64,000 bases of DNA from Minisyncoccota bacterium (GTDB lineage Bacteria > Patescibacteriota > Minisyncoccia > JAHIHE01 > JAGLIN01). The notes below the pieces were generated by a model. It had not been told where the DNA came from. It did not search any database and was given only the letters and a program-made list of their open reading frames with translations. The stretch covers positions 143,191 through 207,190 of the forward strand of contig JBAZUT010000003.1 in the NCBI GenBank assembly GCA_041661265.1, written 5' to 3'. A program made the translations under genes and the position numbers. Of the stretch, positions 614 through 42,285 are shown piece after piece (position 1 is the first letter of the stretch; the number at the start of each line of letters is the position of its first letter).

Positions 614-1249
614 ATGAAAAAATTTAAAAAAGAAGCGTATATCGAGCAATACGAAAAAAACTTGGCGATCTTCGGGCTGTTCGTCTTCATCGTATTTGGT
701 GTGATCTTCATGACCTTTCTCTTGCCAAGCATATACAATATCAAGAACAACCCGAATACAGCGCCTGATAACAACGCATCCGTATCGACATATAATACGA
801 AGCAGAACCTGAACAGCTATAAGTCCGGTTTAGCATCCGCTAAAAACACAAACTACTCTGAGGCTTTGAGCTTCTTCGAAAGCGCCGTTGAAAAAGAGCC
901 GAATAACATAGAATATCTCACGGAGCTTGCGATGACGCATTATCGCTTAAAAAATTATGATAAGTCAACGGAGATCTACAACAGAATAATAAGCCTTGAA
1001 AAAAATAATGTTTTTGCGTATAATAGTATTGGGAACAATTATTGGATCAAAAAGGATTTCACAAACGCGGAAACATCTTTCAGAAAAGCAATACAGATAG
1101 ATCCATATTCGATCCCAAGTTACAGCAATCTTGCGTTAATGCTGGACGAGCTTGGAAGAAAACAGGAAGCGATAAATGTCTTGAGCCAGGGGCTGGCGGC
1201 CAATGAGAACAACTCAGAACTGAAAATATTACTCAGGATCCTGCAATAA
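614..1249 (+). CDS. TPR-repeat protein with an N-terminal transmembrane anchor
   Basis: A hydrophobic helix LAIFGLFVFIVFGVIFMTFLL is followed by repeated TPR-like units of the form A...Y..A..L. Confidence 0.65.
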   Translation: MKKFKKEAYIEQYEKNLAIFGLFVFIVFGVIFMTFLLPSIYNIKNNPNTAPDNNASVSTYNTKQNLNSYKSGLASAKNTNYSEALSFFESAVEKEPNNIEYLTELAMTHYRLKNYDKSTEIYNRIISLEKNNVFAYNSIGNNYWIKKDFTNAETSFRKAIQIDPYSIPSYSNLALMLDELGRKQEAINVLSQGLAANENNSELKILLRILQ

Positions 1250-1393
1250 CGAATGCAGGCGATTCGCGTGATTAGCGGATAGTCAGAAATACAGCATTCG
1301 TTTCACATGAACGGCCGGCTTGGTCTATAATATTCAATGTTTAAAATTCAAACCAAGAAATAATCACTTTTTTCCGTAATTATCAATACAAAA

Positions 1394-3199
1394 ATGACAA
1401 TTCAAAAAAAACAAATAAAGGCGGATATGCTTTTCGAGATGTCGTGGGAAGTATGCAATAAAGTTGGAGGCATCTTTACGGTTTTGAGCTCCAAGGCGAG
1501 GCACATGAAAGAATACTATGATGATAATTACTTCTTGGTCGGTCCATATATCGCAGAATCTACAAGATCATCCTTCAAGGAAGAGTCTGTACCCGAAATA
1601 TACAAAGACAGCTACAACCAATTAAAGGAAAAGGGGATCATCATCCACTTCGGAACTTGGCTTGTAGAAAGCGAACCTCAAGTTATTCTGGTTGACTACA
1701 GAAACTACTGGTCTGCAGTAAATGAGATCAAAAAAGATATATGGGACAACTACGGTCTTGATTCCTTGAATAGTCCTTATGACTTCAATGAACCGGTCCT
1801 ATGGAGCTGGGCTGTGGGAATATTAATGGAGAACATCATGAAGGTCCATTCGAAAAAGACCATTGTTTTGCATGCTCATGAATGGCTTTCGGGCGGAGCG
1901 ATCCTATATTTGAAGAAGAACAAGATAAACGTTGCAACTGTCTTTACGACGCATGCGACAACTCTTGGCAGGACCATAGCCGGGCACGGAGGCGATCTTT
2001 ATTCGATTCTCGATAAAATAAACCCGAGAGATGAGTCATATAAATATGGCGTGAACGCCAAACACGACCTTGAAAAAATAACCGCGCACGCTGCGGATGT
2101 GTTTTCGACAGTAAGCCAGATCACCGCGCTGGAATCGAAGTATATATTGGAGAAAGATGCCGACGTGCTGCTTCCAAACGGCCTTGATATGTCGAAATTC
2201 CATAGTTTTGAAGAACTGACATTGAAACATAATGCCTATAGAACAAAGCTCAGAGAGTTTGTCTTATATTATTTCTACCCATATTACAATATAGATCTGA
2301 AAAACAGCTTGTTCTTCTTTACGGCCAGCAGATACGAATTTCACAATAAAGGCCTGGACATATTCATCGAATCGCTGGGAAGGCTGAACGATAAACTGAA
2401 AAAGGACAAGAGTAAAAAAACCGTCATTACATTCTTCTGGATACCGGCGTCCATAAACAGCATCCGGCAAGACCTCATCGAAGCAAGAGAATCTTTCCAG
2501 GATCTGAAAGATCTACTCGAGGAAAATCAGGAAGAGATCAAAGAAAATCTGTTATATACGCTATCTTCACAGAAAGAGATCAATGAAAAAAATATTATAG
2601 GCAGCGATTCATCCCTGGAACTTAAAAGGAAGATAATGCAGCTTAGATCAAAAAGCGGGAGAGCGCCAGTGTCAACTCACGAATTGATCGACCCGGATAA
2701 CGATCCGATAATGAAAGCGTTCAAGCAGGCAGGCCTTCTTAACAGCGAAGAAGACAGGGTCAAGGTTATTTTTTATCCCATCTATTTGAGCGGTGCGGAC
2801 GGACTTAGCGATCTGGACTACTATCAGAGCATTCAAGCCTGCCATCTTGGAGTATTCCCTTCTTATTATGAACCCTGGGGCTACACCCCGCTCGAGACCG
2901 CGGCGCTCGGCGTCGGTTCCCTGACAAGCAACTTATCCGGATTTGGACGGTACTTTTATGAAAAATTACACGACATTGAATTGCCGGGCATATATATTCT
3001 TGATATAGAAAAAACCAAAAGGGAGGAAATGATGAATACATTCGTCGATATCCTGTATAACTACACCAATCTGGACAAAAGAGGCAGGATCGACAACAAG
3101 ATCCAGGCAAGAAAGGTAGCCTTTATGGCAGATTGGAAGATATTTGCGGAAAATTATATCGACGCCCACAATATGGCGGTTTCAAAAATCAATAAATAA
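1394..3199 (+). CDS. Glycogen synthase of the GT3 (eukaryote/archaeal) type
   Basis: The N-terminus LFEMSWEVCNKVGGIFTVLSSKA...YFLVGPY matches the GT3 glycogen synthase signature (LFExxWEVxNKVGGIYTV). A 601-aa length is typical of prokaryotic GT3 enzymes. Confidence 0.75.
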   Translation: MTIQKKQIKADMLFEMSWEVCNKVGGIFTVLSSKARHMKEYYDDNYFLVGPYIAESTRSSFKEESVPEIYKDSYNQLKEKGIIIHFGTWLVESEPQVILVDYRNYWSAVNEIKKDIWDNYGLDSLNSPYDFNEPVLWSWAVGILMENIMKVHSKKTIVLHAHEWLSGGAILYLKKNKINVATVFTTHATTLGRTIAGHGGDLYSILDKINPRDESYKYGVNAKHDLEKITAHAADVFSTVSQITALESKYILEKDADVLLPNGLDMSKFHSFEELTLKHNAYRTKLREFVLYYFYPYYNIDLKNSLFFFTASRYEFHNKGLDIFIESLGRLNDKLKKDKSKKTVITFFWIPASINSIRQDLIEARESFQDLKDLLEENQEEIKENLLYTLSSQKEINEKNIIGSDSSLELKRKIMQLRSKSGRAPVSTHELIDPDNDPIMKAFKQAGLLNSEEDRVKVIFYPIYLSGADGLSDLDYYQSIQACHLGVFPSYYEPWGYTPLETAALGVGSLTSNLSGFGRYFYEKLHDIELPGIYILDIEKTKREEMMNTFVDILYNYTNLDKRGRIDNKIQARKVAFMADWKIFAENYIDAHNMAVSKINK

Positions 3200-3213
3200 C
3201 TCACGCACAAAAC

Positions 3214-4155
3214 ATGATCGAGCTTCGAAAGGACTATATACTTGACAGATGGAGCTATATTGCGCTTGATCGGGAAAACAGGCTGAAGCAATTTAAGGAA
3301 AGCGGAGACAGCAAGACGGAGGGCGTTTGCTTCTTTTGCCCGGGAAATGAAAACATGACTCCTCCCGAAATTGGCCGGATCGGTACAGCGGATTCGTGGA
3401 AAATAAGATGGTTTCCAAATAAATTTCCAATTACCGAGAGCAGCGTCCAAAGCAATATCGATTTTGGCAAAAAGTTTTTTACAAAAGGAAACGCATTCGG
3501 ATATCATGAGGTGATCGCGGAGACTGCTGACCACAAAAGACAGCTTTGGGATCTTGATGAATCGGAATTATGCGAACTATTAAAAGTATATGGGTCAAGG
3601 ATCCGTGAATTATCGAAAAAAGATGGAGTTAAATATGTCCAGCTGTTTAAAAATAGCGGAAGCGAAGCGGGAACTTCCATTATACATTCGCATACGCAGA
3701 TAGTAACAACAAGCATGATCCCGGAGTCCGTAGTTGAAAAAATAGCAGCCACAAAAAGATTTGAGTCATGTCCATACTGTGAAATCATAGAGATCGAAAA
3801 GAACAGTGAAAGATTCATATATGAAAACGATGATTTTATTGTTTTTGCGCCATTTGCACCGAGATTCAACTATGAAACATGCATATTTCCGAAGAAACAC
3901 TGCAAGGGAATATCCGATCTGCAAGAAAAAGAATATGCAAATTTGGCTTCCGCATTCAAAAAAATCCTATCAAAACTTGCATTACTGAATGCACCATATA
4001 ATTTCTGCCTGCATCATTCTACGGAAAGCGCAGATCTGCATTTTCACTTTGAAATAATGCCGAGACTGAATAAGTGGGCGGGTTTTGAACTGGCTACTGA
4101 TTCATATGTAATTACAGTGTCACCGGAAAATGCAGCTAAGTTTTTTAAAGAATAA
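3214..4155 (+). CDS. galT: Galactose-1-phosphate uridylyltransferase family (GalT-like HIT nucleotidyltransferase)
   Basis: The zinc-site Cys motif CFFCPGNE and the HSHTQI motif, which corresponds to the GalT H-x-H-x-Q active site, are present. Overall architecture resembles E. coli GalT. Confidence 0.65.
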   Translation: MIELRKDYILDRWSYIALDRENRLKQFKESGDSKTEGVCFFCPGNENMTPPEIGRIGTADSWKIRWFPNKFPITESSVQSNIDFGKKFFTKGNAFGYHEVIAETADHKRQLWDLDESELCELLKVYGSRIRELSKKDGVKYVQLFKNSGSEAGTSIIHSHTQIVTTSMIPESVVEKIAATKRFESCPYCEIIEIEKNSERFIYENDDFIVFAPFAPRFNYETCIFPKKHCKGISDLQEKEYANLASAFKKILSKLALLNAPYNFCLHHSTESADLHFHFEIMPRLNKWAGFELATDSYVITVSPENAAKFFKE

Positions 4156-4159
4156 TCGC

Positions 4160-5179
4160 ATGATGAAAAAACCGCTTATATCATTATCCGACATACCCGA
4201 TGCGATCATGGGGCTTTGTCTTATATTCGGAATCGGCTCGGTTTTCGGATTGCTCGTCTTTGCGTCATTCGAGATCGAGAGGACTAAGGTTTTGGAGGCA
4301 AGAGAATCGACATCTCTCGAAGGTGAATACTTCGGGAATAAATTCATACTGGTTAAAACTCCATATAAAAATTCAACGATAAGCAATCCCGCTTATGTTT
4401 CAGGAATGGCCAATGTCTATGAGGCTAACGTCAGAATAAGGATCAAGGAAGAGGGCAATGTGCTCGCAGACACCTTTCTGACCGCCGAGGGAACAGCGGA
4501 TGATCTGTATGACTATAATGGCGATATCATGTTCTCGTTTCCCGAAAAGCCCAATGGCTCGATAGAGATATTTGAAGAAAATCCGAAAAACGGAAAGGAC
4601 ACCTATAAAGTCATTATTCCGGTAGTGTTCGAGGATCACTCTGAACTGATCAAATGGAATGTTTTCAGCGACAGCGCAAATGGATATAGCTTTGAGCATT
4701 CATCCGAACTGACGGTAATTACAAACTCCGAAAAAGAAACGGTAATCTCACACAAAACACCATACAGACACGCTAATTTGTGCATTAATGAAAAGAATAG
4801 GGACATAAACCTAGATGATATTACTGATTTTTATATGTCGATCGGTTATATGAATGATAATGCCCTGAATTCGATCCGCGCAAGTGAAGACATTGCGGAT
4901 CTGAAAGACGAAGGTTTGGAAGCTACCGAATTTGGAGGAAAAAAAGCATATTACATCGACAACACTGAAAGCGGATGCGGAACTACTGATTATTTCATGG
5001 AGCTTTCCAAAGACGAAACGATTATCATCAAAAGGCAAACAGTTCCGGAATTTTCAAAAAACATCGGATCATATTCATCGCTGAAAAATTCTATCATACC
5101 CGCGAACGACATGATATCGCCCTCAAAAAATGATTATATATTCGATCATATCGTATCGTCCATTCGAAGTATTAATTAA
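4160..5179 (+). CDS. Hypothetical membrane-anchored or secreted protein
   Basis: The ORF shows an N-terminal TM/signal helix (IMGLCLIFGIGSVFGLLVFASF) and no recognisable family. The start was moved to the ATGATG at 4160, just after the galT stop, instead of the overlapping 4130. Confidence 0.4.
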   Translation: MMKKPLISLSDIPDAIMGLCLIFGIGSVFGLLVFASFEIERTKVLEARESTSLEGEYFGNKFILVKTPYKNSTISNPAYVSGMANVYEANVRIRIKEEGNVLADTFLTAEGTADDLYDYNGDIMFSFPEKPNGSIEIFEENPKNGKDTYKVIIPVVFEDHSELIKWNVFSDSANGYSFEHSSELTVITNSEKETVISHKTPYRHANLCINEKNRDINLDDITDFYMSIGYMNDNALNSIRASEDIADLKDEGLEATEFGGKKAYYIDNTESGCGTTDYFMELSKDETIIIKRQTVPEFSKNIGSYSSLKNSIIPANDMISPSKNDYIFDHIVSSIRSIN

Positions 5180-5197
5180 TTTTATACAAACAAATAC

Positions 5198-7030
5198 ATG
5201 CAAATAACGCATGAATACAAAAATACAAAAATAGTCAAAAACACCGATGAAAGCACGGGCCTGATCCTTGGAAATGACATGGGTAATTATTATTATATAG
5301 CCAACCAGGATGAAACAAGATATCAGGGGTTTTTTTATTCCGATTGCAAGAATGTCAGAAATGAATTTATGGTGTATAAGATCATCGATTCGATTAATAT
5401 GATCGATTCCGGGAAATTAACCGAGATCAGAAATGGTTTTTTTGAAGTAAGCCGGAAATATGAGAATGGCATCAGTGAAAAATATTTTTTGCCTAATGGC
5501 CATAATGCACTTTGCATCAAGACAAGCAGAACAAGCAAAGCCGAAATAGTGCTTGATATCAGACATCCCTATGATTCCAGGCTAATGGGAAGATTTTATG
5601 AGATTGAAATCAAAAACGATTGCGCTCTCATAAAATTTACGAAACGCAGGGACCAGAACGAAGACGGACTTGCAGATAAAAAGGAATATTCGCTATATCT
5701 TGCCATTAAAACCGACAAAGAAGAATACAAGAGCATAGGCCAATTCTTTTCAAAATACTATCAAAAAGATCACAAACGCAATTCAACTCCTTGGGACAGG
5801 TTTGTTTACAAAGCCGTTGAAATTGAATTCAGGGAAGCGGTTTTGGCAGTCGGAAGAACCCAGAAGGAAGCCATGGACGAGGTTTTGAGAGTTTACAAGA
5901 ATTTCGACAAATTATATGAAAAACAAGCCGACACTGTGCACAAGAAATTAAAGTTTCCGAAGATAAGCGATGAAGAGATAAAGATGGCATATTTGTGCGC
6001 GCAAAACTCCATTTACACAATGCTTGTTGAGGCTAATATGAAAAAGGGAGCATATGCGGGCCTTCCCTGGTTTTTCCAATTTTGGACCCGAGATGAAGCA
6101 ATATCGCTCTTGGAGATCCATAAATTGAAAGAAGATCTTTCACTTGAGATCATAAACAAGCACATCAGGTCGATCACCGGCGACGGGCAATTGCCAAAAC
6201 AAAGATTCTATGGAGCATCGGAAAATGTGCTGAAAAGCGCAGATTCGCTGGGCTGGCTGATGGATCGAATAAAAAAATTAAATGATGCCAAAAAACTTCC
6301 CGAATACCTTAAACTGGAGATCATAGACACGATCGAGAAGGTCATACCCGACCTGATGCAAAAAAGAACGATCGATGATCTTGCCATCAATTATAACAAC
6401 GAAACCTGGATGGACAGTATCGAAAGATCCGGTCAAAGAATTGAGATACAGGCAGGAAGGCTGAAAATATACAAGACCCTATACGAACTGACTCGGAATG
6501 ATCAATATGAAATACTTGAAAGCGAGTTAAGAAAAAAAGTCCTGAGCAAGTTTTATGAAAATGGCATCCTCCTGGATAGCCCTTCCGATAAAACGGCGAG
6601 GCCGAATGCGTTCATAGCGGCCTATTTATATCCCGAACTGCTGTCAAATGAACAATGGGAAACATGCTTTGATAAACTTCTTGAAAGGTTATATCTTCCG
6701 TGGGGAGGCATCTCCACCGTTGATATAAAAAGCGACATGTTCATCGCCCACGACACGGGAGAGAATAGTTTAAGTTATCACAATGGCAACAGCTGGTATT
6801 GGATAAACAACCTTGTTGCGTTAGTTCTGTATAGGATCAATGCCCATAAATATTCCGAATATATAAACTCGATCATGGAAGCTAACACGAAAGATATCCT
6901 CTATGAAGGCATAGCCGGACATCACAGTGAAGTAAGCAGTGCCGAAAAAAAGACATGCTCCGGATGCAATGCGCAATTATGGAGCAGTGCCATGTATCTC
7001 GAGGTTTTTGACGAAATGCTGAACAGCTGA
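5198..7030 (+). CDS. Glycogen debranching enzyme family (amylo-alpha-1,6-glucosidase, GDE_C domain)
   Basis: The motif GLPWFFQFWTRDEAISLLEI matches the GDE_C signature (PWF..WGRDT.ISL). The C-terminal HNGNSWYW region fits an (alpha/alpha)6 barrel. It is adjacent to the glycogen synthase. Confidence 0.65.
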   Translation: MQITHEYKNTKIVKNTDESTGLILGNDMGNYYYIANQDETRYQGFFYSDCKNVRNEFMVYKIIDSINMIDSGKLTEIRNGFFEVSRKYENGISEKYFLPNGHNALCIKTSRTSKAEIVLDIRHPYDSRLMGRFYEIEIKNDCALIKFTKRRDQNEDGLADKKEYSLYLAIKTDKEEYKSIGQFFSKYYQKDHKRNSTPWDRFVYKAVEIEFREAVLAVGRTQKEAMDEVLRVYKNFDKLYEKQADTVHKKLKFPKISDEEIKMAYLCAQNSIYTMLVEANMKKGAYAGLPWFFQFWTRDEAISLLEIHKLKEDLSLEIINKHIRSITGDGQLPKQRFYGASENVLKSADSLGWLMDRIKKLNDAKKLPEYLKLEIIDTIEKVIPDLMQKRTIDDLAINYNNETWMDSIERSGQRIEIQAGRLKIYKTLYELTRNDQYEILESELRKKVLSKFYENGILLDSPSDKTARPNAFIAAYLYPELLSNEQWETCFDKLLERLYLPWGGISTVDIKSDMFIAHDTGENSLSYHNGNSWYWINNLVALVLYRINAHKYSEYINSIMEANTKDILYEGIAGHHSEVSSAEKKTCSGCNAQLWSSAMYLEVFDEMLNS

Positions 7031-15788: not shown

Positions 15789-15826
15789 GCCAAAAAAAGC
15801 TCATTTTTTATTATCCGCCAAATTTG

Positions 15827-15910
<84 letters not shown>

Positions 15911-17900: not shown

Positions 17901-17971
17901 CGGGGTGTAGTATAATGGTAGTACGCGAGCATGGGGTGTTTGTAGCCCGAGTTCGATTCTCGGCACCCCGA
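17901..17971 (+). tRNA. tRNA-Pro (anticodon GGG), provisional
   Basis: CGGGGTG acceptor stem, a short D-arm, an anticodon stem with G-U pairs, loop ATGGGGT (G37), and T-arm CCGAG-TTCGATT-CTCGG. It is 71 nt with no encoded CCA. The anticodon assignment depends on the stem choice. Confidence 0.6.
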
Positions 17972-18008
17972 CTTAGACCATGAGATCTATTTTGGAACTG
18001 GAAAAAAA

Positions 18009-19188: not shown

Positions 19189-19650
19189 ATGGCTAAACAA
19201 TTCATTACGAAAGAAGGATTAGATAATTTAAAGGAAGAATTGAACTATTTGAAAACAACAAAAAGACAAGAAATTGCCAAAAGGATACAAGATGCGAAGG
19301 AGCTCGGAGATCTGAGCGAAAACGCCGAATACTCGGAGGCGAAGGAACAGCAGGCGCTGAACGAGGCAAAAGTATCCGAGATCGAAGAAACTATCAAAAG
19401 CGCAAATGTCATCGACGACAGGCATGCGAAATCAAATGTCGTGCACATCGGATCAACGATAAATGTCAAATGCGGAAAATCCGACCGTACGTTCACAATA
19501 GTCGGTTCAAACGAAGCAAATCCCCTCGAAGGGAAGATATCAAATGAATCGCCGCTGGCAAAGTCTTTTTTGGGACACAAGGCCGGCGACAAGATCACGG
19601 TTGAAACGCCCAAAGGAAAAGTTGTTTACTCGATAATCAGTGTTTCCTAG
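19189..19650 (+). CDS. greA: Transcription elongation factor GreA
   Basis: N-terminal coiled-coil LSENAEYSEAKEQQ and a C-terminal FKBP-like domain; 153 aa. Confidence 0.85.
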   Translation: MAKQFITKEGLDNLKEELNYLKTTKRQEIAKRIQDAKELGDLSENAEYSEAKEQQALNEAKVSEIEETIKSANVIDDRHAKSNVVHIGSTINVKCGKSDRTFTIVGSNEANPLEGKISNESPLAKSFLGHKAGDKITVETPKGKVVYSIISVS

Positions 19651-19785: not shown

Positions 19786-20142
19786 ATGTTATTTGAAGCA
19801 TTAAGGATCGTCGGAGTCATTATCAGGAACATAATCAGCACAAACGATCCATGGCTCTTCTATTTAGGAGTTTTTGCGATCAGTTTCATCATCATGTTGA
19901 TATATATGGCGATCATAGACCTGGCCGAATGGCTTCTTGAAAGCAAGGCATGGTTTTGGATCAGCCTGCTGGGGAAAGGAATAACTCCGGAATATCCCGT
20001 GAAATTTGATAAGATCAGGAACAGGGGATGCTATCCCATAGAAGCAAGCAGCGGTCCTTATCGCACTTCGCTCGTAAAAATAGTCCTGAAAATGGAACTT
20101 GGACACACCACGTCCTATGTCAATGTTTATGCCACGCCTTGA
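19786..20142 (+). CDS. Hypothetical small membrane protein
   Basis: 118 aa with the TM helix YLGVFAISFIIMLIYMAII. Confidence 0.35.
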   Translation: MLFEALRIVGVIIRNIISTNDPWLFYLGVFAISFIIMLIYMAIIDLAEWLLESKAWFWISLLGKGITPEYPVKFDKIRNRGCYPIEASSGPYRTSLVKIVLKMELGHTTSYVNVYATP

Positions 20143-20259: not shown

Positions 20260-22347
20260 ATGATAAATGAAATTAGAGAAGCGCGCATAAATAAGCTAAA
20301 AAACTTGATCGATTTAAAGATCGATCCTTATCCGGCAAGGTCCAAGAGAACGCATGTCATTGCGAACGTTCTCAGAGATTTTGATAATATTCTGAACTCG
20401 AATGAAACGATATATCTTTGCGGAAGAACGAGAACCGTACGAGAGCATGGCGGACTTACATTCATGGACCTCGAGGACGAGAGCGGAAAGATACAGCTTT
20501 TTTTCAAAAAAGACGAGATTGGGGAGGAAAAATACGGATCCATAAACAATCTTGACATCGGAGATTTCATTGAAGCTCATGGCAATGTGTTTACGACAAA
20601 AAAGGGAGAGAAGACGCTCAATGTCCTGGGCTACAAGATCCTCACGAAATCGTTGATGCCGCTTCCGGAAAAATGGCATGGCCTTTCGGACGAGGAAACA
20701 AGATACAGAAAACGATATCTCGACCTGGTCATGAACAAAGATGTAAAACGGCTTTTCGGAACAAGAACGAAATTCGTGAATAATGTCAGGGAATTCTTGA
20801 ACAACAACGGCTATACTGAAGTTGAAACTCCAGTTCTTGAAAGCATTCCGGGCGGAGCGGATGCAGAGCCATTCATTACGCATCATAATAAGCTTGATAT
20901 AAAATTATACCTCAGGATCTCGCTTGAATTGCATCTGAAAAGGCTTATTGTCGGAGGATTTGAAAAGATCTATGAACTTGGAAGGGTTTTCAGGAACGAA
21001 GGGATGAGCACCCAGCATCTGCAGGAATTCACCATGCTTGAATTTTATTGGGCCTATGCGGACTATGAGGATCTGATGAAATTCGTCGAAGAATTCTATG
21101 TCACAGTCATAAAGAAAACATTCGGAACTCTTGAGATCAAATATCAGGGAAAGATCCTGAATTTCAACGCACCGTGGCCAAGATTCGATTACAGACAGAT
21201 CATAATCAAAGAATCAGGCATCGATATCGACAAATATCCGACCAAGGAAGACATGCGGAAGATTTCCCTCGAGAAGGGGATAAAAGTAGATCCGAAAGCG
21301 GGCAGGGGCCGGCTTATTGATCAATTATACAAAAGGCTCGTCAGACCGAAACTTTTCCAGCCATGTTTTCTCATAAACCATCCGCTTGATATTTCACCTC
21401 TGGCGAAGAAAAAAGATGAGGATAAGGACAAGGTCCAGAGATTCCAGGTACTGATCGCCGGCGCTGAGGTCGGCAATGGTTTTTCCGAGCTTAATGATCC
21501 GATAGACCAGAAGGAACGCTTCGAGGCGCAGGCAAGACTCCGCGAAGAGGGCGATGCCGAAGCTCAGATGATGGACGAAGATTTCGTCGAGGCCCTTGAA
21601 TATGGGATGCCGCCAACCGCAGGATTCGGCGTGGGTATCGACAGATTCCTTGCAATACTCATGGACCAGAAAAGCATAAGAGATGTTGTTTTCTTTCCAA
21701 TGATGAGACCGGAACAGAAAGTCGAAAGTGGGAAGTCGAAAGTGGAAAGTAATGTCTCGAACATAAATTTGGGCATTGATTCAACAAAAGCAAAAGACAT
21801 AGTTGATAAATACATAACGGATAAAAATACTAAGCTGCATTCGATCGAAAGCAAGGTGATTATGGAAGGAGTGGCGGAACATCTAAAGCAAGACAAAGAG
21901 AAGTGGGGGATAATCGGGCTTTTGCACGATATAGACTGGGATCAGACGAAAAACAATACGGCTGAACATTGCATAAAATCTTCGGAGATCCTAAGGGCTG
22001 AAGGCGCAAGTGATTTTCTTATCAGTACCATTGAGTCTCATGGATATGGTTGCGTAAAGAATCCAAAATTTAACGGAAAATCCAGATCCACTGACCTTGA
22101 ACATCTTTTGGCTGCGTCGGAAACGCTAACCGGACTGATAGTGGCATCAGCCATCATGCAGCCCGACAAAAAACTTGCAAGCGTAAAGTTAAGCTCTCTC
22201 AAAAAGAAATTTAAAAGCAAGAGTTTCGCCGCGAATTGCAACAGGGAGATCATAAAGGAATGCGAACTCGCCGGAATAAAACTGGATGAATTCCTGGAGA
22301 TTGGATTGGAGGCGCTTCAGGGGATAGGCGGGGAATTGGGAATGTAG
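20260..22347 (+). CDS. lysS: Lysyl-tRNA synthetase (class II) fused to a C-terminal HD-domain phosphohydrolase-like module of about 190 aa
   Basis: The N-terminal anticodon-binding OB fold (GDFIEAHGNVFTTKKGE) and class II motifs (FRNEG, GVGIDR) end near DVVFFPMMRPE. A linker and then H...(25 aa)...GLLHDIDW follow, which is the HD superfamily metal-binding signature. Confidence 0.85.
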   Translation: MINEIREARINKLKNLIDLKIDPYPARSKRTHVIANVLRDFDNILNSNETIYLCGRTRTVREHGGLTFMDLEDESGKIQLFFKKDEIGEEKYGSINNLDIGDFIEAHGNVFTTKKGEKTLNVLGYKILTKSLMPLPEKWHGLSDEETRYRKRYLDLVMNKDVKRLFGTRTKFVNNVREFLNNNGYTEVETPVLESIPGGADAEPFITHHNKLDIKLYLRISLELHLKRLIVGGFEKIYELGRVFRNEGMSTQHLQEFTMLEFYWAYADYEDLMKFVEEFYVTVIKKTFGTLEIKYQGKILNFNAPWPRFDYRQIIIKESGIDIDKYPTKEDMRKISLEKGIKVDPKAGRGRLIDQLYKRLVRPKLFQPCFLINHPLDISPLAKKKDEDKDKVQRFQVLIAGAEVGNGFSELNDPIDQKERFEAQARLREEGDAEAQMMDEDFVEALEYGMPPTAGFGVGIDRFLAILMDQKSIRDVVFFPMMRPEQKVESGKSKVESNVSNINLGIDSTKAKDIVDKYITDKNTKLHSIESKVIMEGVAEHLKQDKEKWGIIGLLHDIDWDQTKNNTAEHCIKSSEILRAEGASDFLISTIESHGYGCVKNPKFNGKSRSTDLEHLLAASETLTGLIVASAIMQPDKKLASVKLSSLKKKFKSKSFAANCNREIIKECELAGIKLDEFLEIGLEALQGIGGELGM

Positions 22348-22371: not shown

Positions 22372-23679
22372 ATGCTCGACATAAAATTCATCAGAGAAAA
22401 TAAAGATAAAATAGAAAAGGCCGCAACCAGCAAGCATATCAAAATTGATATTGATGCGCTCCTTGCAGTTGATGATGAAAAAAGAAAACTTCAGAAAAAT
22501 ATTGACGATCTTAATACTCAGAGGAACAAGCTTGCGAAGGATGCAAAAACGGGCAAACCTTCTCAGGAACAGATCGAAAAAGGAAGGAAACTTAAAGAAG
22601 AAGCCTTCAAGAATGAAACTGAACTGAAAGAAGTGGACAAGAAATTCCTTGAATTGATGGTAAAGGTTCCAACGATCCCGTCAGAGGACACTCCAACCGG
22701 AAAAGATGACAGTGAAAATGTGGTGGTCCACAAATGGAAAGGGCCTACGAATTTTGACTTCAAGCCGAAAAGCTATCTTGAGCTTGCGTCCGACCTGGAC
22801 CTGCTGGACCTCGAACGTGGAACAAAGGTCGCGGGATATAGAGGATATTACGTAAAGAACGAAGCGGTCCTTCTGCAGATGGGAATGATGATGTTTGCGC
22901 TTACGAAACTTATCGGGAAAGGATTTACTCCGATGATACCTCCGACGCTCATAAAAGAGTTCGCGCTTTTTGGAAGCGGCTATTTCGGAGGAAAGGAATA
23001 TAATCCCGACAGGGACGAGATCTATAAAATTGCAAACGATGAAAAACTTTCGGACGGCACCGTAAAAAAAGAGAATAAATTCCTGGTAGGAACGGCGGAG
23101 CCATCGCTTCTTGCATATTATGCGGACGAGATCCTGGAGGAAAAAGATCTTCCCATCAAGATCTGTGGATTCTCGCAGTGCTATAGGAGCGAGATCGGAA
23201 GCTATGGAAAAGATACGAAAGGCATATATCGCGTACATGAATTTATGAAAGTGGAGCAGATCTGCATCACGAAAGCGGATGCAAAAGAATCCGACAAGTT
23301 GCAGGAAGAGATGATCGGCATCTCAAAAGAACTTCATGAAGATCTCGGTCTTCCATATCGGCAGCTTCAGATCTGCACCGGAGATATGAGCGCAGGGAAA
23401 TACAGACAATACGACCTCGAAGCATGGATGCCTTCGAGAAATGGATACGGGGAAACAGGATCATGCTCAAGTTTTCTGGACTGGCAATCACGCCGGCTCA
23501 ATGTGAAATATAAAAATAAAGACGGTAAGAAAAAATACGTTTATATGCTGAATAACACTGCGCTTCCAAGCGTCAGGCCGATGATCGCGATCATGGAAAA
23601 CTACCAGCAAAAGGACGGCAGCATAGTCGTTCCGGAAGTTCTCAGGAAATTTGTCGGAAAGGACATAATAAAAAAATAA
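22372..23679 (+). CDS. serS: Seryl-tRNA synthetase
   Basis: N-terminal coiled-coil arm and class II catalytic core (FRSEIGSYGKDTKGIYRVHEF, LNNTALP) in a 435-aa ORF. Confidence 0.9.
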   Translation: MLDIKFIRENKDKIEKAATSKHIKIDIDALLAVDDEKRKLQKNIDDLNTQRNKLAKDAKTGKPSQEQIEKGRKLKEEAFKNETELKEVDKKFLELMVKVPTIPSEDTPTGKDDSENVVVHKWKGPTNFDFKPKSYLELASDLDLLDLERGTKVAGYRGYYVKNEAVLLQMGMMMFALTKLIGKGFTPMIPPTLIKEFALFGSGYFGGKEYNPDRDEIYKIANDEKLSDGTVKKENKFLVGTAEPSLLAYYADEILEEKDLPIKICGFSQCYRSEIGSYGKDTKGIYRVHEFMKVEQICITKADAKESDKLQEEMIGISKELHEDLGLPYRQLQICTGDMSAGKYRQYDLEAWMPSRNGYGETGSCSSFLDWQSRRLNVKYKNKDGKKKYVYMLNNTALPSVRPMIAIMENYQQKDGSIVVPEVLRKFVGKDIIKK

Positions 23680-42180: not shown

Positions 42181-42253
42181 GCGGGTGTCGTATAACGGCT
42201 TATTATGCTAGCCTTCCAAGCTGGAGACGTGGGTTCGACTCCCATCACCCGCT
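42181..42253 (+). tRNA. tRNA-Gly (anticodon TCC)
   Basis: GCGGGTG acceptor stem, anticodon stem CTAGC/GCTGG with loop CTTCCAA, T-arm GTGGG-TTCGACT-CCCAT, and discriminator U. Confidence 0.75.
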
Positions 42254-42285
42254 CATCGATAATGAAAAATGCAGCATAAAAAAAC

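Follow-up and report, generated by a model that had tools for sequence, protein, structure and literature searches.

A stretch of 64,000 nucleotides from a Minisyncoccota bacterium (contig JBAZUT010000003.1, positions 143,191 to 207,190; hereafter the window) contains at positions 20260-22347 of the + strand a single unbroken open reading frame (ORF) of 695 codons plus a stop codon, which encodes a lysyl-tRNA synthetase (LysRS) with a C-terminal HD module. The product of this lysS-HD fusion gene is 100% identical to the public protein P0121 (NCBI MFA6096679.1). All parts of the gene are given below in + strand coordinates. Residues 1-485 (20260..21714) are assigned to class II LysRS by the Pfam models PF01336 and PF00152 and by the NCBIfam lysS models PRK00484 and TIGR00499. 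They comprise an OB anticodon-binding domain at residues 53-128 (20416-20643; tRNA_anti-codon, PF01336) and the class II D/K/N catalytic core at residues 144-482 (20689-21705; tRNA-synt_2, PF00152, 290 bits). Both lysS models match end to end, PRK00484 at residues 4-485 with 637.6 bits (cut-off 468) and TIGR00499 with 574 bits (cut-off 427.6), together covering residues 3-485. With these two domains, the end-to-end matches and a well-folded AlphaFold2 (AF2) model (pLDDT about 90-98), this part of the protein is a complete class II LysS, presumably the sole housekeeping LysRS of the cell.

The synthetase is followed by a linker at residues 486-505 (QKVESGKSKVESNVSNINLG; 21715..21774), as delimited by the alignment of fusions, AF2 and Tandem Repeats Finder (TRF), and by an all alpha-helical HD/HDIG phosphohydrolase module of 190 residues (506-695; 21775..22344), as delimited by PF01966, TIGR00277 and AF2. 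The Pfam HD model PF01966 matches residues 527-599 with 24.8 bits when the full protein is searched and 27.1 bits for the C-terminus alone, against a gathering score of 22, and the NCBIfam HDIG model TIGR00277 matches residues 521-594 with 34.5-37.2 bits against a cut-off of 27.6. The linker is of low complexity, and its length and sequence vary between the aligned fusions. Base composition shows no break across the LysRS/HD junction, and a scan of the domain junction found no promoter- or terminator-like site. An earlier note on this DNA, made from the letters alone, had described a LysRS core ending at about residue 500 near the motif DVVFFPMMRPE, then a linker and a domain of roughly 190 residues. 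The motif is found at residues 475-485 and the order of the parts agrees with that description, while the end of the core has to be moved back to residue 485. The HD signature proposed in the same note was also located, as H527 followed by 25 residues and GLLHDIDW at positions 553-560.

Residue conservation in the module was counted over 49 full-length fusions. The first metal-ligand histidine, H527 (21838..21840), is present in 49/49 and aligns with the first histidine of YqeK, the spacing of 29 residues between this histidine and the HD doublet being the same in both. The doublet lies in a family-specific HDxD[WFY] motif, H556-D557-I558-D559 (21925..21936), in which H556 is kept in 48/49, D557 in 49/49 and D559 in 49/49. 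Two candidate second-metal ligands follow, H570 (21967..21969; His in 45/49, Gln in 4/49) and H594 (22039..22041; 49/49), and the last ligand position, E621 (22120..22122), is always acidic, with 35 Glu and 14 Asp among the 49. Thus the ligand set that the superfamily is known for, H527, H556, D557, H570, H594 and E/D621, is found in 45-49 of the 49 fusions, and the same six positions are kept in standalone proteins of the family; the downstream His/Asp residues that had been noticed in the first reading of the sequence prove to belong to a full, near-invariant set. The extended H...HD...H...H...D pattern is described in a review of the superfamily as diagnostic of dinuclear HD sites (PMC8177086). 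The module has an intact dinuclear ligand set and is an apparently active, metal-dependent phosphohydrolase. Further downstream, a basic segment K637-K638 ... K649, K652, K654 ... R662 (22168..22245; K637 48/49, K649 48/49, K652 46/49, R662 49/49) is a candidate phosphate or nucleic-acid binding surface.

Modelled in isolation with AF2, the module is all-helical with pLDDT 95.1 and pTM 0.91. In the full-length model both halves are well folded (mean pLDDT 91.4), pTM is only 0.68 and residues 487-498 have pLDDT <50; no confident docked arrangement of the HD module on LysRS was obtained in this model. Since well-folded halves are combined with a low pTM and a low-confidence linker, the HD module is modelled as an independently folding unit, flexibly tethered by a disordered segment of about 20 residues.

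The identical 695-residue protein, encoded on a 208-kb contig, is publicly annotated as 'MAG: lysine--tRNA ligase [Candidatus Paceibacterota bacterium]', and its sequence is present in NCBI, JGI, ENA and Logan, one of these four sources being an independent re-assembly collection. A whole-protein search returned about 40 further full-coverage fusions of 682-735 residues with 47-89% identity from independent assemblies, so that the search of related genomes proposed in the earlier note yielded abundant examples of the same fusion. The 695-residue architecture itself recurs in proteins 77-89% identical from other samples, and 15 additional fusion clusters were found among the top 150 representatives of the HD family. 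In the locus L006, which encodes an 89% identical relative, the gene order small ORF, lysS-HD, serS is the same as in the window. The linker DNA of L006 aligns without gaps to that of the window and retains its length, being heavily diverged in sequence and built of different A-rich repeats. The linker seems to evolve by slippage with preservation of the frame.

Two observations would fit an artefact peculiar to this sequence, be it an assembly error, a frameshift or a lost stop codon. In the related locus L005, lysS and the HD gene are separate, lie in different frames and are only 2 nt apart, and the window's linker contains a 14-nt tandem repeat (GAAAGTCGAAAGTG; 21717-21750, 2.4 copies with a 7-nt sub-period by TRF), which is translated in two frames (KVESG / KSKVE) and from which the loss of one unit would restore the lysS stop codon. 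However, relatives with the same frame and length have other linker sequences, so the in-frame junction is older than the 14-nt repeat. Together with the 77-89% identical proteins from other samples, the dozens of more distant fusions in independent assemblies and the presence of the identical protein in four sources, the diverged L006 linker of equal length led us to reject an artefact, the chance of which we regard as practically negligible. The covalent LysRS-HD fusion proposed in the earlier note is genuine; the fusion is real and selected.

Fused and split forms of the pair were compared across lineages. A search with the C-terminal 210 residues alone gave 917 protein matches; the best 120 of these 917 are nearly all standalone HD proteins of 182-251 residues (mostly about 195) with 58-68% identity from Patescibacteria (Moranbacteria and others), those of 195 residues being 60-67% identical to the module. 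A module-alignment scan of species-representative genomes gave 594 relatives, and the loci examined below are the best 80 of the 594. Among them, only loci of the Patescibacteria type and of DPANN, two episymbiotic lineages, have lysS fused to the HD gene or directly upstream of it in the same orientation; outside the candidate phyla radiation (CPR) and DPANN it is never found near an HD-family gene, and no aminoacyl-tRNA synthetase (aaRS) other than LysRS recurs as a neighbour. The fused loci are L012, L013 and L020 from the genome scan, with L007 and L009 from protein look-ups. Adjacent but unfused genes occur in L005, L011, L014, L018, L040, L051 and L086, with junctions as tight as an ATGA start/stop overlap (L018) or TAAGATG (L040). 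In L005 the order is greA, small ORF, lysS (499 aa), the 2-nt gap, HD (195 aa), ..., serS. In L001-L003 three genes stand between lysS and HD: PAP2, an unknown gene and, directly upstream of the HD gene, a NUDIX gene of the MutT-like kind.

A neighbour-joining tree built from LysRS cores intermingles fused with unfused proteins inside the clade of the window protein (>=69% identity), as in the pairs P0130/P0157, P0128/P0140 and P0136/P0198. Fitch parsimony on the LysRS tree gives at least 12 changes between the fused and unfused states, a count that takes in three DUF2000 fusions and two contig-truncated proteins and comes from a sample skewed to fusions by score ranking. Qualitatively, it is still safe to conclude that several fusion or fission events took place. 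This interleaving of fused and split forms is a 'Rosetta-stone' pattern, which argues for functional coupling of LysRS and the HD enzyme.

Several of these loci have features of their own. Metagenome-assembled genomes assigned to DPANN (Woesearchaeota, Nanoarchaeota, 'uncultured archaeon') carry a bacterial-type class II LysRS gene followed by the HD gene (L014 4397-6597, L018 131-2265, L040 3786-6582), which suggests either that the lysS-HD pair has been transferred between CPR and DPANN or that the bins contain errors. The locus L012 (4432-6585), in which the HD part of a fused LysRS-HD is 61% identical to that of the window, belongs to a contig with the title 'uncultured Gammaproteobacteria bacterium'; this bin is probably mislabelled or contaminated. 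In L005 (4322-7609), three HD-type genes lie within 3.5 kb: the lysS-linked HD gene, a 180-aa RelA/SpoT-hydrolase-like gene and a gene for a 220-aa YedJ/PRK10119-like phosphohydrolase. The start of an RfaE/TagD-like nucleotidyltransferase gene overlaps the HD stop codon in the same locus.

The family to which the module belongs extends far beyond these lineages. An exhaustive profile search recovered 4,754 clusters (50% identity) at E<=1e-3, of which 387 reach E<=1e-30; standalone proteins of 180-200 residues, from many phyla and with no aaRS attached, make up the majority. The genes upstream of HD-family genes outside the lysS context are heterogeneous. In Bacillota, a Pfam tally and tblastn identified 15 loci from several orders (L029, L032, L038, L039, L041, L042, L043, L046, L047, L050, L052, L055, L058, L064 and L069) in which rnr and/or smpB directly follows a standalone HD gene, a conserved link to genes of trans-translation and RNA decay.

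Architectures were determined for family members of unusual length. Besides the many examples of LysRS-HD, they include LysRS-B3/4-HD (P0227 with 951 aa, in L009 at 4001-6856 and in L010 at 813-3668; P0374), LysRS-B3/4 followed by a separate HD gene (L040, LysRS-B3/4 at 3786-5993), LysRS-DUF2000-HD (P0242), LysRS-DUF2000 (P0165, P0169, P0174; 635 aa) and LysRS-HAD-HD with a HAD phosphatase-like domain (P0288, 918 aa). Outside LysRS, the combinations HD-Ham1/ITPase (P0370), AMMECR1-HD (P0295) and PAS-GGDEF-HD (P0266) were observed. The B3/4 module matches the PheRS-beta editing domain and CtdA (9f7e, E 5.6e-4), a freestanding canavanyl-tRNA deacylase (PMC10018355, PMC12449066). The papers on CtdA and B3/4 deacylases make no mention of LysRS fusions. 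By its domain content, the LysRS-B3/4 architecture suggests a LysRS with a post-transfer-editing-type domain in cis. We know of no LysRS that carries a post-transfer editing domain. The DUF2000 module, with a suspected fold like that of peptidyl-tRNA hydrolase 2 (PTH2), had no match among PDB sequences. From these architectures, the LysRS C-terminus in Patescibacteria looks like a hotspot for accessory hydrolase modules.

Comparisons of the HD domain with solved structures gave distant matches. A single-domain sequence search of PDB returned no true match, only chance matches to ribosomal proteins. With the family profile, the best PDB matches are two YqeK diadenosine tetraphosphate (Ap4A) hydrolases (E 0.014 and 0.042), confined to the H...HD segment and followed by spurious matches to caspase-4. 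Foldseek of the module against PDB found nothing at E<=1e-3; its top match, a weak one, is the HD domain of the GlyRS beta subunit (7eiv_C, E 9e-3, TMq 0.47), and the highest TM-score, also from a weak match, belongs to the HD domain of the cyclic di-AMP (c-di-AMP) phosphodiesterase PgpH (TMq 0.56). The YqeK structures (TMq 0.44-0.48) are weak matches no better than PgpH or GlyRS-beta, and the uncharacterised protein 2pq7 and the small alarmone hydrolase RelH are further weak ones. At the level of NCBIfam models, members of the present family are nearest to generic HDIG. Next come RNase Y, for which the L029 protein of Bacillota scores 42 bits over the entire HD domain, and the HD tail of aTrm56 (PRK12703), both with scores far below the respective cut-offs.

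The earlier note had likened the domain to HD enzymes of the YqeK type, and this assignment is not supported. YqeK (COG1713, TIGR00488), the symmetrical Ap4A hydrolase of Gram-positive bacteria, shares with the module a size of about 190 residues, an all-helical fold, the six-residue dinuclear pattern and the spacing described above; it also provides the best sequence-profile matches in PDB, and its substrate Ap4A is a LysRS product. However, only the first 40-60 residues align. The window's HD domain has no match to TIGR00488 even at E<=1, and a Bacillota family member scores 27.4 bits against a cut-off of 70.15 over its N-terminal 40 residues only. The catalytic lysine of YqeK is located three residues after the HD doublet (K62 in S. 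pyogenes YqeK; PMC11857287). At this position the module has W560 (W, F, Y, M or T in the family), so this lysine, which is also the K of HDIGK, is absent, while an invariant aspartate, D559, stands at HD+2. The last ligand of the present family is often glutamate, and linkage to nadD is absent: none is found in the window, and the sole nucleotidyltransferase neighbour, in L005, was considered as a candidate NadD from its CTP_transf_like domain and rejected, being RfaE-domain-II/TagD-like. Orthology to YqeK was therefore rejected on profile, missing catalytic lysine and gene context. Of the families named in the earlier note for comparison, PF01966 is recovered above its cut-off and the YqeK model is not. 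On these sequence comparisons, the domain is best described as a member of the HD/HDIG superfamily outside the YqeK family, with no close solved structure.

Two other groups of HD domains are relevant. The HD domain of GlyRS-beta (PDB 7eiv, 7yse) is the only previously described HD-fold domain within an aaRS; it lacks the HD doublet and contacts the tRNA acceptor arm (PMC8464048). It is internal and its doublet has been lost (Ser-Lys in E. coli), whereas the LysRS-fused domain is C-terminal, tethered by a disordered linker, keeps the doublet and all ligands, and also exists as a free protein. The embedded arrangement of GlyRS-beta is thus not what is found in the window. The HDIG subgroup of RNase Y, PgpH and aTrm56-HD contains the runners-up to generic HDIG among the family models (RNase Y and PRK12703) and, with PgpH, the highest TM-score, but the present module has neither the HDIGK lysine nor KH or transmembrane domains.

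Because fusions recur, the HD enzyme would be expected to act on something that LysRS makes or handles, the protein being a bifunctional combination of LysRS with a tethered HDIG-type phosphohydrolase. LysRS is the classic producer of Ap4A and Ap3A (PMC10148737). Since the link is limited to LysRS among the aaRSs and LysRS is the classic source of these compounds, we tentatively favour, at somewhat less than even chances, a role in which the HD domain hydrolyses adenylylated by-products made by LysRS, that is, dinucleoside polyphosphates such as Ap4A and possibly other dinucleotides. The domain would then degrade Ap4A and Ap3A at the site of their synthesis as an analogue of YqeK from outside the YqeK family, limiting alarmone output and recycling adenine nucleotides on the spot. 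The coupling of Ap4A synthesis and degradation raised in the earlier note is plausible on this view. A nucleotide substrate is supported by the YqeK hydrolases as best profile matches in PDB and by the company that the family keeps, namely the fused Ham1/ITPase (P0370) and HAD phosphatase-like (P0288) domains and the NUDIX neighbour in L001-L003, all of which are nucleotide house-cleaning enzymes.

Several results weigh against this assignment. Membership in YqeK fails on the family model and the catalytic lysine, the TM-score being about 0.45, and family members are closer in sequence to RNase Y (its HD domain) and to aTrm56 (the HD tail of this archaeal tRNA methyltransferase) than to YqeK. 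The AF2 model shows no defined interface suggestive of substrate channelling. The standalone gene of Bacillota is syntenic with rnr/smpB and not with lysS or nadD. Finally, the family is present in Bacillota and Thermotogota, which by a phylum-level comparison are phyla reported to have YqeK (PMC10148737), and this argues against a simple equivalence to YqeK. A dinucleotide-type substrate might, speculatively, reconcile the rnr context with hydrolysis of nucleotides, since RNase R releases short oligonucleotides.

The synteny with rnr/smpB in Bacillota and the B3/4 and DUF2000 modules co-fused with LysRS also fit an activity directed at tRNA or other RNA, in line with the alternative given in the earlier note. 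In its explicit form, the domain would be a 3'-end phosphoesterase that clears tRNA(Lys) or other RNA ends of a 2',3'-cyclic phosphate or 3'-phosphate, or one that cuts RNA; LysRS in CPR and DPANN, or RNase R and SmpB-tmRNA in Bacillota, could then use the 3' end. The 15 Bacillota loci agree with this, yet they represent a single phylum and could reflect inherited gene order. The aminoacyl-tRNA-editing-type modules inserted between LysRS and HD in relatives and the conserved Lys/Arg-rich segment agree as well, but nothing accounts for a need of 3'-end healing in LysRS alone among the aaRSs, and no kinase or ligase partner was found in the loci examined. The RNase Y HD domain and aTrm56-HD lead the family scores after generic HDIG, and the top Foldseek match is the tRNA-acceptor-binding HD domain of GlyRS-beta; however, fold matches are all weak, none reaching E<=1e-3, and GlyRS-beta has lost the doublet (PMC8464048) in contrast to the present module with every ligand in place. 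On balance we consider this activity unlikely, though it is the main rival of by-product hydrolysis.

A phosphodiesterase or sensor for signal nucleotides, acting on c-di-AMP/pApA as PgpH or on (p)ppGpp/(p)ppApp as the small alarmone hydrolases, would tie lysyl-tRNA charging to stress. The top TM-score of PgpH (TMq 0.56) and the presence of RelH among the matches point this way but come from weak structural matches, and the dinuclear ligand set resembles PgpH and HD-GYP, while the HDIGK lysine of PgpH and RNase Y is missing from the HDIDW motif. One family member is fused to PAS-GGDEF (P0266); on the other hand, LysRS has no known link to these messengers, and in L005 the role is seemingly filled by the separate RelA/SpoT-HD-like gene next to it. 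We judge this alternative improbable. Still less credible, to the point of being very improbable, is a non-catalytic tRNA-binding or dimerisation module after the model of the degenerate HD domain of GlyRS-beta, the top Foldseek match and one that contacts the acceptor arm without an HD doublet (PMC8464048), since the present domain keeps all six ligand positions essentially invariant in the 49 fusions and in the standalone proteins and is found in many phyla as a separate gene of enzyme size, with no aaRS.

If by-product hydrolysis by the HD domain is assumed, a broader proposal can be made, which we put forward as a conjecture that is rather unlikely to hold in full. LysRS-HD would be a self-limiting synthetase-hydrolase of Ap4A (NpnN), the Ap4A counterpart of the bifunctional Rel/SpoT; its HD module would found a new widespread family of Ap4A/dinucleotide hydrolases distinct from YqeK, ApaH, Nudix and HIT; and the LysRS C-terminus in CPR and DPANN would be a docking site for modular clean-up enzymes (HD, B3/4 deacylase, DUF2000, HAD), by which these episymbionts would make up for their reduced genomes. 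The likeness to Rel/SpoT would consist in one polypeptide that combines synthesis of an alarmone-type nucleotide with an HD hydrolase. The differences are that the synthetase here is an essential aaRS for which Ap4A is a side product, that the order is reversed with HD at the C-terminus, and that there is no sequence kinship beyond the HD superfamily.

A full-text literature search found no description of a LysRS-HD, LysRS-B3/4 or LysRS-DUF2000 fusion; for LysRS with an HD domain it returned only GlyRS-beta and unrelated papers, and a literature search on COG2316 and DUF2000 returned nothing. The public records say only 'lysine--tRNA ligase', and the impression of novelty in the earlier note is thus upheld by the literature searched. 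An extra domain on an aaRS is usually the sign of a further function, for instance editing, signalling or lipid modification. What is already known is that aaRSs can have appended domains and that an HD fold exists inside GlyRS-beta; what is new is an intact HD domain of an orphan family on LysRS. The closest analogues are aaRSs with cis-editing or accessory domains and LysX (MprF-LysRS), which likewise have an extra enzymatic module on an aaRS or LysRS core; relatives of the window protein carry B3/4, DUF2000 or HAD domains in the corresponding position. The differences are that HD is a phosphohydrolase fold and not a known aminoacyl-ester hydrolase, and that in LysX the membrane lipid-lysylation domain is at the N-terminus.

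Here, an HD phosphohydrolase that is apparently active, as predicted from its ligand set, has been captured repeatedly by an essential synthetase; it comes from a large family without known function or a close solved structure. The fused/split 'Rosetta-stone' link gives this orphan family of 4,754 clusters at 50% identity its first concrete, testable functional hypothesis. If Ap4A is the substrate, LysRS-HD would be the first enzyme to combine synthesis and breakdown of this debated alarmone, as well as a fourth or fifth class of Ap4A hydrolases; if RNA ends are the substrate, the synthetase would have tRNA repair built in. Either outcome would be informative on the handling of translation by-products in the ultra-small cells of CPR and DPANN.

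The serS gene (seryl-tRNA synthetase; 22372..23679, +) begins 24 nt downstream of the fusion gene on the same strand, an order repeated in L004 and L006. Upstream lies greA (19189..19650, +), which also precedes lysS in L005, L007, L008 and L009. The Rfam and tRNA scans of the window identified three ordinary tRNA genes, Leu-CAA (15826-15910, -), Pro-GGG (17901-17972, +) and Gly-TCC (42181-42254, +), and no other RNA genes, with no tRNA-Lys near lysS. No homologues of RNase R or SmpB were found within the window.

Between greA and lysS there is a small ORF (19786-20142) with no assigned function. The 71-aa ORF that takes its place in L005 is not similar to it. Conservation is limited to its C-terminal 76 residues, which are 64% identical to a 75-aa gene in the same place in L006, and because of this limit its true start is probably internal, near 19906-19912.

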